This document shows positions 7,591 to 56,882 of a stretch of 64,000 nt of DNA, piece after piece. Source of the DNA: Octopus vulgaris (taxonomy: Eukaryota); assembly GCA_951406725.2 (NCBI GenBank), contig OX597822.1:56048001-56112000 (forward strand), written 5' to 3'. Below the pieces are notes generated by a model. The model saw nothing but the letters and a program-made list of their open reading frames with translations. It was not told the DNA's origin and searched no databases. Position 1 is the first letter of the stretch. Every line of letters begins with the position of its first letter. The position numbers and the translations under genes were made by a program.

Positions 7591-7900
7591 ATATAAAGAA
7601 AGTAAGATAAGGTAGAAAATACTAAAACAATTTTATCATGAAAATCATTTTAGTACCAGTTATAGCCCTTGCAACTTTTTCAAGAAAAGCATGAAAAACG
7701 ATTAAATGACGGAAAAATTAAATAAAATGTTTTTATAAAAATATTTCCATAAAAAACATTTCATTTAATTTTTCCACAATTTAATTGTCTTTCATGCTTG
7801 ACTTTAAGTTGAAAAAGTCGCAAAAACTGAAACCGGTACTAAAATGCTTTTCATGGTAAATTTATTTTCGCATTTTCTACCTTGTCTTATTTTTCATATA
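7591..7900. mobile_element. Palindromic PLE terminal-repeat relic between (TA)n tracts
   Basis: Imperfect ~150 bp arms centred near 7740. Right arm matches the 3' end of the GIY-YIG PLE at 24450-24590, including TTGAAAA...GAAACCGGTACT (7809-7840). Confidence 0.8.
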
Positions 7901-8564
7901 CATATCAACTTGTGTGTTTCTTTTCAACCTTCTACACACACACATATATATATATTTATATACACACATATATATATATATATATATATATATATATATA
8001 TATATATATATATATATATATGTGTGTGTGTGTGTGTTTGTGTGTGAGTGTGTGTATGCATATATATATATATATATATATATATATATATATATATATA
8101 TATATGTATATATGTATATATATGTGTATATGCAGACACACACATACACACACACACACACACACACACACACACATGTTTGGAGGCTGTAGCTGTGGAT
8201 GGCTACGGCACTCATTTTTTTATTATTTTATTTTATTTCGTTTACACGAAATTGTTTCTGTGTTTTGTTTTACTGCTTATGCAAAGTTACTCCTACATTC
8301 ATGTAGAAACCGGGAAAGGATTTTCTTCGAGAAAGAGATAACGAACAGATATGCATTTTCAATGATGACCCACGCGCACACGCCCAAGGACACGCACACA
8401 CCCATGCACATACCTTTGTAAATGCATGAATGTATACTTACACACAAAAAAAAATGAAGATAGCAATTTATTACTACAATATGCTTACATATAGCCATAT
8501 ATACAGACATATATCCACATATATACACATACACACACGGGAATATATATATATGTATATATAT

Positions 8565-8955
8565 AGGCGCAGGAGTAGCTGTGTGGTAAGTAGCTTGCTT
8601 ACCAACCACATGGTTCCGGGTTCAGTCCAACTGCGTGGCACCTTGGGCAAGTGTCTTCTACTATAGCCTCGGGCCAACCAATGCCTTGTGAGTGGATTTG
8701 GTAGACGGAAACTGAAAGAAGCCTGTCGTATATATGTATATATATATATGTGTGTGTATGTTAGTGTGTCTGTGTTTATCCCCCTAGCATTGCTGGTGTG
8801 TTTGCGTCCCCGTAACTTAGCGGTTCGGCAAAGGAGACCGATAGAATAAGTAGTGGGCTTACAAAGAATAAGTCCCGGGGTCGAGTTGCTCGATTAAAGG
8901 CGGTGCTCCAGCATGGCCGCAGTCAAATGACTGAAACAAGTAAAAGAGTAAAGAG
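8565..8955 (+). mobile_element. SINE family A, full length
   Basis: Same head, body and tail as 1557-1999. Confidence 0.92.
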
Positions 8956-9099
8956 TATATACATATATAAATAAATAAATAAATAAATATATATGTACAT
9001 AGATATATGTATATATACATATGTATACAGGTGGCGTGCAAAGATATATATGTGTGTGTATGAGTGTGAGTGAGTATAAGCATGTATGTGTGTGCGCCC

Positions 9100-9817
9100 A
9101 CGTGTTCCACCAGACAGAGAGAAGAACCTTCTTCGCATGGAGTTTCCTTTTCGGCTGCGTTTGGTCCTGTTCCCATTCACCAAGCCAATATCTACGACAC
9201 TTAACATTTTGATATAAGACCCAGTTTTCATGACCGGTCATCAGTCTGTCCAAAAAGGTTGACATGAGTTCATGAGAACGAAGAGAAGAGCAAATGTCCA
9301 TTCGAGATTTGCGATTGGCTTCAGACAAATCATGAGCACCCATTATCCGAGTTTGTGGACCTTTCCAAGCTGTTGAAGGTGGCAGTGAACAATTGTATGG
9401 GTTAAACGAAGCTTGCCTGCCAATTCTTAAAATCAAACTGCATGATCTTGTTCTTGTTCTGCCAAACTCAATTGGACGTCCTGTTCGAGCCTCATCTTCA
9501 AGGCTGAAATCTATAATTCTGAATTTTGCCAATCCTCTTCAGCTTGTTCTTTCATTCAGATACTCTTCCCCATAAGCTGAGTGAATATTTCGAGTCGCTT
9601 CAGCTGCAAAGTTCTCATTTTTAAACACATAATGCATTATGTACCTTAAATGCGCCTTAGACACTACCATGTTTGAAGAGATATAATTAGTGAAATTTAA
9701 TTAGTTTAAATATGTCCAAATACATATAACTTGATGCCATAAGATATTCTAAATTACTGTTAAAGTGTTCGAAAATTTCAAATATAGAAGTCCGAACATT
9801 ACTTATGGGATAAACAT
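9100..9817 (-). mobile_element. Mariner (Tc1/mariner) transposon relic, 5' half
   Basis: ATG near 9670 gives MVVSKAHLRYIMHYVFK...AAEATRNIHSAYG; later GRP, a WVPHEL-like segment (GAHDLSEAN) and FLDRLMTGHENWVLY (TGDEKW motif). Stops and frameshifts present. TIR-like end near 9790-9817 next to TA. Confidence 0.88.
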
Positions 9818-10201
9818 ATATATACCTACACATACACACATATATACAGACATATACAGATATATACATACATACCATATATATATATACATACATATAT
9901 GTATGTATACATACATATGTATACATACACACACACACATTATATCATGTTACACGTTGACTAAAATCTTGGGCTAGCTTTCATAATCTCTTTAATTGGT
10001 AATAAAACAAATTATTATAAACTCATGCTTAATGCTATAACTTAGACACGTGTAACAATAGTAATGTGAATAAGAAATCTGTTACTCTAGATTCATTTGT
10101 TTAGGTATTCTCTCATGATATACTTCTCTTTATAGAAACAATGAAGGCCGTCACGACATTTTATTTTATTGTATATTATTAATATATTCCACACATTTAA
10201 A

Positions 10202-10420
10202 GTGGTAAGCTGGCAGAATCGTTAGTACGCTGGATGAAATGCTTCGCGGTATTTCGCCTGTCGCTCCGTTCTGAGTTCAAATTTTGCCCTTGTCGACTTT
10301 GCTTTTCAGCCTTTCGAGGTCAAGAAAATAAACTTCAGCTGACCACTGTGGTTGATGTAATCCACTGAGCCCCTACCTGAAATTGCTGGCCTTGTGCCAA
10401 AATTTGAAGCTATTATTATT
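10202..10420 (+). mobile_element. SINE family C
   Basis: tRNA-like head with GAGTTCAAAT B-box; same body as other family C copies; (ATT)n tail. Confidence 0.75.
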
Positions 10421-54289: not shown

Positions 54290-54356
54290 CTTTATTTTAA
54301 GCAGCAGAAAATTCAACAAAATCTGTTACTCTGAGTTTCTGGTTGCCGTTCATCAG
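54290..54356 (-). mobile_element. 67 bp HHR fragment, same family as 28124-28363
   Basis: Near-identical to 28124-28190. Confidence 0.85.
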
Positions 54357-54375
54357 CATATATTTATATATATAT

Positions 54376-54794
54376 AGGCGCAGGAGTGGCTGTGTGGTAA
54401 GTAGCTTGCTTACCAACCACATGGTACCGGGTTCAGTCCCACTGCGTGGCATCTTGGGTAAGAGTCTTCTGCTATAGCCCCGGGCCGACCAATGCCTTGT
54501 GAGTGGATTTGGTAGACAGAAACTGAAAGAAGCCTGTCGTATATATGTATATATATATATATGTATGCGTGCGTGTGTTTGTGTGTCTGTGTTTGTCCCC
54601 CTAGCATAGCTTGACAACCGATGCTGGTGTGTTTACGTCCCCGTCACTTAGCGGTTCGGCAAAAGAGACCGATAGAATAAGTACTGGGCTTCCAAAGAAT
54701 AAGTCCCGGTGTTGATTTGCTCGACTAAAGGCGGTGCTCCAGCATGGCCGCAGTCAAACGACTGAAACAAGTAAAAGAGAGAGAGTAAAAGAGA
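54376..54794 (+). mobile_element. SINE family A, full length
   Basis: High identity to 1557-1999 and 8565-8955. Confidence 0.92.
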
Positions 54795-56111
54795 ATATTA
54801 AATATGAATGTTTAATATAATGTATAAATGTATGTAAGTATGTATGTGTGCATGTATGTGCATTGTTAACTTAGATATTTATGTAGGTTGCTCACATTTA
54901 TTTATTACGTGGATTTGTCCTGTGTTTTCATATGCATTAAGTCTTTGATTCGATTTAGTCTGATATTCCATTTCGTTGCTGACGGCAAATCATAAACAGT
55001 TTCTGTAATCTTACATGTTCGCAACGAAGGAGTGGTCTCTGGAGAATTTATATAATTTCCAACCGGAAACATCGATATTTTGTAAGAATCGAGTTGAATA
55101 TTACAGAAGCTTTCAAAAGAAAATATAATTTTTTTATCCTAAATGTCAGTTTATTTATAACATAATTATTTTTTGTGACATTGGCTTCAACAAAGACAAT
55201 TACATATTTCATCAAAAACGTTGCATCTGTGACCAATCCGTCTGTTTGTGTACATATATATTCATGTTTTAACTTTCCCATTTCAGTTTATAAGAACATG
55301 ACCCTTGTTGTTATTATGTCTTTATTTTGTTGCCTAGTCACCAATCCAAACCTAACATATTAGACTTATCATCATAAAGCGCTCCATCCATAATCAATCC
55401 ATCTGCCTATCTATCTTAATCCCATATTTTTACACTATTGCTTCCATGTTTGAGTAAATCTATGTTGTAATTGATGTCGCTACCGTTGTTGCAATTTGGT
55501 TATGGTGATTGTCCTTTAATCACAGATTAACCACAATGCAGCAAATTATGGAAAATATTTTATCTGCGGCAATAACGCCAAATATACTTTATGCTTGTTT
55601 TTATATATTTGGTATGACACTCTCCAATGTTCCTTATTACATTTCTTAACACAGTAGGCCCATCTGAGATAAACAGGCCTACTACTGCTAGCAGTCCAAC
55701 CAATCTGGTAGAAAGCCTCTTTCTGGTCTATCAAAACTTATTTATTATCTCGGAAGTGAAATGCAAGAAGAGAAAAATTCGTGGTATGTTAGCAAAGATT
55801 CTGAGCTTTCCGACAGAAAAGATAGAGAGAATGCACGACATATTTTCGGCAAGAGAAATTGCACTTCAAACCATCGAGTTTTACTGCATAACAGTGATCT
55901 GGTGCAGATCCTTGCACAAGAGTGAACACTGCTAAAATATTCCCATGATAATCATTGTTCATTGTCAGTGATTTCTTTTGATATACAGTTCACTGAACAT
56001 ACGGCTAAAAGTAGGAAAGACGACATTCAGCTTAATACATACATACATACATACATACATACATACATACACACACATATATATATATATATATATATAT
56101 ATATATATATA

Positions 56112-56527
56112 ATTGATCAAAATAAAAACATGATGCCAAGGATTCAGCGGTACATATGTTTCGGGCCTTTATTAGACAGATTTATAACAATGCATAATGT
56201 ATGTCTGTGGCCTTCTTCAGCCGCGCACAACAGCTTCCACAAGGACATGTGTTACATCAAAAATTCTTGGTTGGGGATGCAAATCCTCTCATTCGCGTAC
56301 GACATAATGCGGCAACAGCATAGAATTGAAGCGTCCATCTCTTTTTTCTCTCATTCTACATTGAGAGAAAAAAGAAAAAAGAGATGGACGCTTCAATTCT
56401 ATGCTGTTGCCGCATTATGTCGTACGCGAATGAGAGGATTTGCATCCCCAACCAAGAATTTTTGATGTAACACATGTCCTTGTGGAAGCTGTTGTGCGCG
56501 ACTGAAGAAGGCCACAGACATACATTA
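56112..56527 (-). mobile_element. HHR-bearing element with near-perfect ~150 bp-arm palindrome
   Basis: 56195-56347 vs ~56374-56527 with one visible mismatch; abuts (TA)n on the left. Confidence 0.85.
56147..56224 (-). ncRNA. Type I hammerhead ribozyme, core intact
   Basis: GCGG-CTGAAGA-aGGCC...GGCCc-GAAAC-ATAT-GTA-CCGC on the minus strand. Confidence 0.8.
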
Positions 56528-56529
56528 GC

Positions 56530-56882
56530 CTTTCTTATAGTAGGTGATCCCCATGAAAATTTTGATATCTTCTGGTATTGCGGCTACCTTTCTCAGTGGG
56601 GTAGACCTGCACATTCCATATGTCGTAGTGGTTAAGAGCGCGGGCTATTAACCGCACGATTCCGATTCGATTCCAGACAGTGATCTGAATAATAATACTA
56701 ATACTAATACTACTACTACTAAAAGTAATAATAATAACATCGAAAAATACCTTAGGAATGAGAAACCAGGTTCGAAATTTCCTCAAGACACCTGATGAAA
56801 GCTAGAGGGTATATCGGCCCAAACGTTGTGTTAACAACAAACAAGATGAGAACAAATATCCGTCAAATGTAAATAATGTATA
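56530..56882 (+). mobile_element. Element combining a tRNA-like segment with an HHR-like 3' end
   Basis: TGTCGTAGTGGTTAAGAGCGCGGGCTATTAACCGCACG..GATTCGATTCC (56621-56674); GACAC-CTGATGA...CAAAC-GTT-GTGTT (56787-56832); then (TA)n. Confidence 0.55.

Follow-up and report, generated by a model that had tools for sequence, protein, structure and literature searches.

Hammerhead-bearing ends of Penelope-like elements and their head-to-head pairs in a 64-kb stretch of the octopus genome

Minimal type I hammerhead ribozymes have been reported in Penelope-like elements (PLEs), together with solo copies, motifs on opposite strands and a U3-A8 variant of the core (Cervera and de la Pena, 2014; PMC4209133). 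An inverted 5′-truncated copy, a tail on one side only and a bias toward (TA)n have also been published for PLEs, and the origin of their tandem and inverted insertions was described as still open (Craig et al., 2021; PMC8557442). In vitro, the Poseidon protein PAc cuts and extends both strands and starts reverse transcription (RT) at both boundaries of the tail (Frangieh et al., 2024; PMC11167929). Here we describe such elements in 64,000 nucleotides of Octopus vulgaris DNA (the window; G000:C9:56048001-56112000, within a 2.8-Gb assembly), in which an earlier sequence-only reading had seen a dense community of non-coding, PLE-mobilised hammerhead cassettes targeting (TA)n and depositing long hairpins. 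The phenomenon is real, and most of it is accounted for by PLE biology already known, in a genome that is unusually rich: the units are probably 3′ ends (pseudo-long terminal repeats, pseudo-LTRs) of about a dozen PLE families, and the hairpins single insertions that likely arose by double priming on one template. What would be added to the published picture is a mechanism-bearing rule for inverted insertions, a putative tRNA-headed PLE end and a candidate source of octopus double-stranded RNA (dsRNA).

Like the hammerheads in the sections of PMC4209133 compared here, those of the octopus have a short stem I, a palindromic stem III, a bulge after A9 and the U3-A8 variant; many are solo copies from truncated PLEs, and others form opposite-strand pairs 100-700 bp apart. 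They differ in that four families (K, G, E and C) have a stem II of 49-110 nt and that one (J) carries U4C family-wide, and the roughly 84,000 loci estimated below far exceed the 2,000-9,000 per genome given there, the descriptors being different. The corresponding sections of PMC8557442 likewise describe an inverted copy at the 5′ end, a tail often at one end only and a linker-tied (TA)n bias. There, the tails are 30-40 nt and Hydra-type elements are described as few, whereas here the tails are 32-105 nt, the one-tail rule is quantified and several Hydra-type families have 345-1,618 first-look candidates each. Shared with PMC11167929 are RT starts at two sites that bound the tail, and insertion for which cleavage is unnecessary; the parts of that paper used here do not address inverted pairs, which the genomic counts below tie to one use per start site.

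The families, designated by letters, were followed through the assembly with DNA queries for 12 of them (345-4,239 first-look candidates each, the best 40 being scored; family N had no query). Nine of the 13 families run upstream, at other loci, into PLE coding sequence of three clades. Reverse-transcriptase and/or GIY-YIG open reading frames (ORFs) are joined by A (L217; PLE proteins upstream at 10/20 loci), D (the window copy; PLE coding sequence at 3/20 loci), F (L264), H (L213, a 5.1-kb tandem; the pseudo-LTR tandem with its tail continuing into the ORF is found at L097/L213), I (L345, a 781-aa ORF), K (L112) and M (L490, a 569-aa ORF; Pfam RVT_1, E 2.7e-6), and endonuclease remnants by C (L207) and G (L214). 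Clades were called by motifs from PMC8557442, not by a tree. The Hydra type, defined by a CxCX5C linker, CxxC and CxH around E and N, DKT, an RWK-like motif and no CCHH, comprises K, H, F, C and G, with all motifs in H, the endonuclease motifs in K, one linker Cys changed in F and the C-terminal motifs only in C and G. A CX2-5CxxC linker plus CCHH places A, D and I in Neptune/Nematis, which the motifs leave unseparated, and M, with CCHH and no linker (L490, L489, L491), is of the Penelope/Poseidon type. Of what was first proposed, mobilisation by PLEs, the multitude of unrelated families and the long hairpins find support. To call the cassettes non-coding was too strong, nine families being contiguous with PLE coding sequence; what stands of that idea is that F acts largely as a short non-autonomous unit because all 30 of its copies found with the tail query end no more than 73 nt upstream of the cleavage site.

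The same F copies could be taken as a sign that the units are independent non-coding ribozyme families that simply use PLE proteins, much as the sequence-only reading had it, in the manner of retrozymes with circular RNA intermediates. The copies of B, E and J examined have no partner ORF so far (N was not searched), which counts against PLE parentage throughout, and L348 (G000:C1:20001500-20005500) is a true tandem retrozyme with the same head-to-head, one-tail layout: five 359-nt units on one strand and two on the other, with a 41-nt tail on one arm, lie in (TA)n. On this retrozyme array, the insertion signature of PLEs is seen directly. Animal non-LTR retrozymes share type I hammerheads and a proposed PLE mobilisation or origin with the octopus units (PMC7229834; bioRxiv 10.64898/2026.07.22.740005), but in the parts of these accounts used here they consist of tandem 170-400 nt units, whereas the window units are single or inverted and L348 alone is tandem. 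In addition, nine families are contiguous with PLE coding sequence, and main-arm 5′ ends fall at 0 to +8 of the cleavage site in only 1/30 K, 3/30 F and 3/30 A copies. Independent families are accordingly an unlikely explanation, and the units are read below as PLE ends.

In all families typed, the 3′ end occurs in two versions that lie 32-105 nt apart, and about half of all ends are tailed. First, among 73 head-to-head pairs, counted after removal of duplicates with identical flanks, 70 have a single tail (64 short/tail, and six in which the end opposite the tail lies 8-10 nt past the short mark); the exceptions are one tail/tail, one short/short and one mid/short pair. Second, queries made of the tail plus the bases following the cleavage site found an inverted arm in 17/30 K, 25/30 F, 17/30 A and 11/28 M copies, and this arm was tail-less in all 59 cases of K, F and A (17/17, 25/25 and 17/17) and in 9/11 of M. 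Third, the two arms share alleles. A two-state site is identical between the arms in 15/15 clear F pairs (one more is ambiguous and one is cut), and non-majority bases common to both arms outnumber those under shuffled pairing in C (49 vs 20.7), D (15 vs 6.5), F (7 vs 2.4) and G (6 vs 0). Fourth, flanking repeats of at least 9 nt occur at 14/38 loci of family M, compared with 13/123 in the control, and at 10/38 loci a 9-13 bp duplication adjoins the outer end of the inverted arm, one target duplication surrounding the entire pair. One tail, common alleles and a single target duplication therefore point to a pair as one insertion from one allele, in which each start site was used once. Together they offer a testable answer to the open question on inverted insertions, consistent with the only in vitro PLE system.

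We infer that double priming is followed by microhomology joining. The element protein would nick both strands of an AT-rich target, and RT would be primed twice on the same RNA, once per start site, with one cDNA beginning at the tail end and the other at the tail base; both cDNAs would stop early and be joined at their 3′ ends via short microhomologies. The junctions often carry 1-9 nt of overlap or small local duplications. These would fit a snap-back, in which a single cDNA primed at the tail folds over and copying then runs back as far as the tail base, as would the common alleles and the many pairs in which the tailed arm is longer. However, snap-back requires a tailed arm at least as long as the other, and a tail-less cDNA offers no tail to copy. 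The longer arm may be tailed or tail-less, and the tail-less one reaches further 5′ in many pairs, namely in K (L350, L352, L356, L361, L364, L366 and L377), A (L413 and L421) and the window copies of H and I. Because either arm can be longer, snap-back alone is insufficient; it already fails as the sole mechanism and seems improbable. Double priming is the likely account. Several observations weigh against this account. Two M inverted arms, and likewise L217, were typed tail/tail, and arm concordance in E, M and K is not above chance, K being nearly invariant. The concordance could alternatively stem from later gene conversion or from subfamily masters, and young copies are over-represented because the searches return the 40 best copies only.

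The window pairs have also to be weighed against assembly chimeras and fold-back DNA elements with TA target duplications, since palindromes flanked by TA look like miniature inverted-repeat elements of the Tc1/mariner type and 24 of 47 inverted pairs in a genome-wide sample are unclassified. The arms of the listed pairs, however, differ by up to 21%, their centres vary, the tail stands on one end and the hammerheads face outward on both arms. Contigs from 3/4 other runs cross the middle of the 13132-13529 pair and differ from it at 0-2 positions over 116 nt, none spanning the whole stretch. For the listed pairs this explanation is refuted and retains next to no probability.

Most insertion ends are not set by the hammerhead itself. 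The idea that cleavage generates the 5′ ends found no support in K or F with queries lying wholly downstream of the cleavage site; family A has a small excess of 5′ ends (6/47 arms at 0 to +5), and the H query gave no matches. Clusters of 5′ ends lie upstream of the ribozyme, at -203 to -212 in 6/30 K copies, -42 to -47 in 12/30 F copies and -160 to -170 in 11/30 A copies. Because these ends pile up at one site per family, many short copies would derive from RNAs starting inside the pseudo-LTR; transcription from there is the likely cause of the clusters, with strong RT stops as the alternative. The K cluster falls on what we take to be an initiator-like motif.

Proximity to TA requires a control because the window is AT-rich (65% AT) and dense in (TA)n, with more than 100 runs. 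(TA)5 lies within 200 nt downstream of 12/13 hammerhead sites, compared with 27% of random window positions, so the adjacency first noticed is confirmed. At genome scale, the targeting holds for K (36/41 ends meeting (TA)n), A (19/24), F (39/41), G (28/33) and H (27/28), that is 79-96%, against 3.8-5.2% of random positions, but not for M (3/28) or C (4/30). M is not TA-targeted, as the linker hypothesis expects for a linker-less PLE. Two results are unfavourable to general TA targeting: the proportion is only 32-46% in D (12/26), B (9/24) and E (8/25), which are probably undercounted because the end coordinates used are a few bases off, and C, with its Hydra-type endonuclease remnant, is yet seldom at (TA)n, an exception to the linker hypothesis.

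In the window, the elements are as follows.

7591-7935, + strand: family A-related head-to-head pair, the right arm tailed; U3-A8 hammerhead 7809-7838, decayed; arms 79% identical; 77% identity to 24435-24587.
10697-10902, + strand: family B head-to-head pair; tail 10851-10902; copy without hammerhead, a hammerhead-like motif lying just upstream in L331 and L332.
13132-13539, + strand: family C pair; decayed hammerhead 13367-13480 with stem II of about 100 nt.
17884-19101, + strand: 5′-truncated PLE of family D; GIY-YIG ORF 17884-18399; hammerhead 18899-18933 (U4C).
23014-24590, + strand: 5′-truncated PLE of family A; thumb/endonuclease ORF to 23770; hammerhead 24503-24534 intact, of the U3-A8 type; end without tail, in (TA)n.
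25826-26019, + strand: solo family D end; hammerhead 25834-25868 (GACA).
26488-26824, + strand: family E pair; hammerheads 26615-26540(-) and 26630-26705(+); tail 26754-26824.
28124-28363, + strand: near-perfect palindrome of family F; hammerheads 28226-28255(+) and 28190-28161(-); 71-nt tail on the right arm.
29222-29971, no strand assigned: inverted pair, family not assigned; 130-nt arms, 99% identical; beside (TA)n.
32800-33837, + strand: pair of family G with arms of 379 nt, the right one tailed; hammerhead 33228-33296 (A9G).
34327-34449, - strand: inverted arm of family H with tail.
37095-37372, + strand: tail-less arm of family H; intact hammerhead 37307-37345.
48316-49144, + strand: family I pair; tail on the left arm; only a 3′ half-core, 49067-49076.
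52910-53127, + strand: family J end; hammerhead 52997-53023; U4C, as throughout the family, with GAAC in addition in this copy.
54290-54356, - strand: tail-less solo arm of family F, cut at the core.
56111-56539, - strand: pair of family K, its right arm broken off at 56539; hammerhead 56220-56151(-) intact, stem II 51 nt long.
56615-56885, + strand: family M, a Penelope/Poseidon-type PLE represented by its 3′ end; A and B boxes in a tRNA-like head (56617-56674), then (AAT)n and a decayed hammerhead 56792-56827.
59839-60036, - strand: second family E copy, 72-75% alike; decayed hammerhead 60032-59955 with two compensatory stem I changes.

All 13 hammerhead motifs first listed are present with type I anatomy and a palindromic stem III; one was real but misplaced, the motif put at 13451 having its core at 13367, GAAA at 13469 and a stem II of about 100 nt. 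About five to six of the 13 are intact. A strict type I descriptor passes five sites in the window (18899 with U4C, 24503, 28226, 37307 and 56220-) and none in 30 local shuffles. The remaining eight are mutated, cut or of odd architecture, with stem mismatches at 7809, GACA in place of GAAA at 25834, T-T mismatches at the opening of stem II next to an intact core at 26615(-), A9G at 33228, U4C plus GAAC at 52997, the 5′ strand of stem I cut off at 54356(-) and CAAA at 56792. Family majorities restore the canonical letters at 18899, 25859, 33234, 53016 and 56820. Rfam hammerhead models were absent from the 150 matches listed of 293 in the window and from those of one family M copy. All nine inverted pairs first listed were found too, with arm identities of 79-100%; those at 10697 and 48354 have no complete hammerhead within the window, and in predicted folds of eight pairs 68-97% of the bases are paired. 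The pair at 29222-29971 and the decayed hammerhead at 60032(-) had been overlooked. Another decayed hammerhead-like 3′ half, 29972-30030 (-), adjoins the former, and similar sequence lies beside L073 and L328.

Copies are 99-100% identical in K, A, H and I and about 83% in C. For K, A, F, G, H, D, E, M and C, the column majority over 20-30 copies is a complete hammerhead, and for J a U4C version; five core defects of the window copies are missing from these majorities, although the copies were not selected for this. Stem I in ten family majorities has ten different sequences, all of them paired, and the two window copies of E (72-75% alike) differ by two compensatory stem I pairs. The core of family A is U3-A8. 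The U4C core (CCGA), the majority in J, is also common among F copies and present in some D copies. Stem III is a perfect palindrome in K, A, G, D, E, J, M and C, a near-perfect one in F and a 4-bp hairpin in H. In two-copy fold predictions for K, A, H and F it pairs between molecules, and the hammerhead is predicted to be active only as a dimer. A very young PLE family, I, has no complete hammerhead in any of 12 loci: at 49067-49076 it has GAAA together with a stem II that pairs and a stem III that is palindromic, yet no adjoining first half-core. The preceding sequence resembles a splice acceptor, and our guess is that the ribozyme might be split by an intron and form only after splicing. 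The Hydra-type tails of K, H and F (63-71 nt) open with a common short motif; in H and F, a complement able to pair with it lies 11-14 nt further on, a candidate RT start structure.

Beyond the window, 40 evenly placed 10-kb stretches (400 kb) contain 19 descriptor hammerheads at 12 intact-hammerhead loci, against none in eight shuffles; seven of the 12 loci come from families outside the window, and eight lie within 250 nt of (TA)5 (against 20%). Extrapolated to the genome, this gives about 84,000 loci (Poisson range about 43,000-147,000). The same sample has 47 close inverted pairs, of which 16 carry a window family or hammerhead mark, seven are a common short interspersed element (SINE) and 24 are unclassified. 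A density of one hairpin per 6 kb thus fits the window (10 pairs in 64 kb) but not the genome, and the window is denser than average because the sample has about one PLE-marked pair per 25 kb. As for the suggestion that such density is undescribed in cephalopods, the anatomy is published (PMC4209133, PMC8557442) and octopus PLEs are annotated, 190 Penelope-like families making up 6.83% of one octopus genome (Bonar et al.; PMC13282606), but they are annotated without ribozymes: the word is absent from the text and supplement of that paper and likewise from Marino et al. The giant squid genome paper lists 235 Rfam hammerheads. A literature search joining hammerhead ribozyme, Penelope-like and octopus matched only Craig et al.

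RNA transcribed across a pair would form 100-400 bp of dsRNA by folding, which would also bury the ribozyme, and the pairs would give tens of thousands of long RNA hairpins if transcribed. Octopus and frog were reported as highest in long dsRNA and hyper-editing; the frog case was explained by a palindromic repeat, and the sections of that paper used here give no source for the octopus (Porath et al.; PMC5625713). Head-to-head pairs are a concrete candidate for this source. K and M are covered by contigs that we guess to be RNA. A few of these differ by about 10%, with A>G or T>C among the changes; lacking comparison DNA from that animal, the contigs are silent on editing and expression.

In the window copy of family M, a tRNA-like head is followed by (AAT)n, the hammerhead and the PLE end. 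With a body-only query, the start of 11/20 copies lies no more than 8 nt from that of the head, one copy extends further up, and M copies that reach past the head enter the GIY-YIG ORF. Of the 20 top matches taken from a protein search (4,163 candidates), 18 have the head about 30 nt past the stop codon, and the body is present in 17. With tRNA spacing, an A box is found in 18/31 and a B box in 21/31 copies. The M 3′ end is a PLE pseudo-LTR with an optional tail and inverted copies, not a 3′ end derived from a long interspersed element (LINE) with a poly(A) or simple-repeat tail; as read from these features, the short form behaves SINE-like, is not a standard tRNA-derived SINE and is not TA-targeted. 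The simplest history would be an old SINE insertion in the 3′ untranslated region (UTR) that became part of the pseudo-LTR and may now drive short transcripts. The head would let RNA polymerase III (Pol III) make a ribozyme RNA of about 270 nt, to be copied SINE-like by the protein of the parent. Three points weaken the case for such Pol III use, to which the starts at the head speak only indirectly. ARAGORN recognised 0/11 heads by default and 7/12 with relaxed settings and mixed isotypes, and there was no Rfam tRNA match; a short natural palindrome at the head start could itself favour junctions there; and the lack of a T4 terminator in 26/31 copies is a weak argument because 26% of random windows also have none.

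Schistosome Sm-alpha/Sj-alpha resemble M in being short, high-copy retroposons with a tRNA-related Pol III-type promoter and a hammerhead (PMC2770079, PMC6765202). In the parts of these papers used here they are tandem and no autonomous parent is shown, whereas M is monomeric and its head lies inside a PLE encoding reverse transcriptase, 5′ of the ribozyme. Helenus/Ajax and Cassandra, miniature terminal-repeat retrotransposons (TRIMs), likewise have a small-RNA-derived promoter in the terminal repeat, with SINE insertion proposed (Kojima, 2024; PMC10886601). These are non-autonomous LTR elements, unlike the autonomous PLE pseudo-LTR of M, and 'Penelope' goes unmentioned in that paper. The literature searched, mostly open-access, showed no PLE with a tRNA-like head; Ohshima and Okada (1994), on octopus SINEs, and Lunse et al. 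(2016) may bear on novelty. If true, a pseudo-LTR with a tRNA head would open a way for SINE-like elements to arise independently of any LINE. That an autonomous Penelope/Poseidon element captured a tRNA-type promoter in its pseudo-LTR and so gave rise to a Pol III-transcribed ribozyme SINE running on PLE rather than LINE machinery, and that double-primed palindromes, of the order of 100,000, explain much of the so far unexplained octopus excess of long dsRNA and adenosine-to-inosine hyper-editing, is a tentative combination that we hold to be possible, with the balance of probability somewhat against it.

Two further readings were rejected. The long E copies L138, L140 and L150, considered as the parent of E, are one duplicated locus. 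A protein-coding retrozyme, suggested by G lying 3′ of ORF1-like genes without reverse transcriptase at some loci, turned out to involve a separate inserted unit of about 1.75 kb, with no hammerhead in 7/7 arrays scanned. This unit (about 1.7-1.76 kb) has an open ORF1/gag-like frame of 400-500 aa with a weak zf-CCHC match, forms head-to-tail arrays of up to 12 units and gave 13,155 first-look candidates, with no hammerhead; it is found at G000:C2:138773033-138793078 (L245-L247) and at L248-L260, L214, L215 and L218. Several units occupy one site of the family G 3′ UTR (L214, L239, L242 and L244). The 3′ end of the unit resembles, we presume, that of Tx1-type LINEs.

Other repeats share the window with the PLE ends. 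A SINE-like abundant repeat split by (TA)n has at least six copies (1557-2003, 8565-8960, 19416-19811, 30471-30958, 41424-41918 and 54372-54799). There are also a decayed Helitron at 45769-48016(+) (Pfam Helitron_like_N), a mariner fragment at 8894-9538(-) (Transposase_1), a LINE reverse-transcriptase fragment at 57932-59080(-) (RVT_1) and an unexplained palindrome of 94 nt at 50941-51034.

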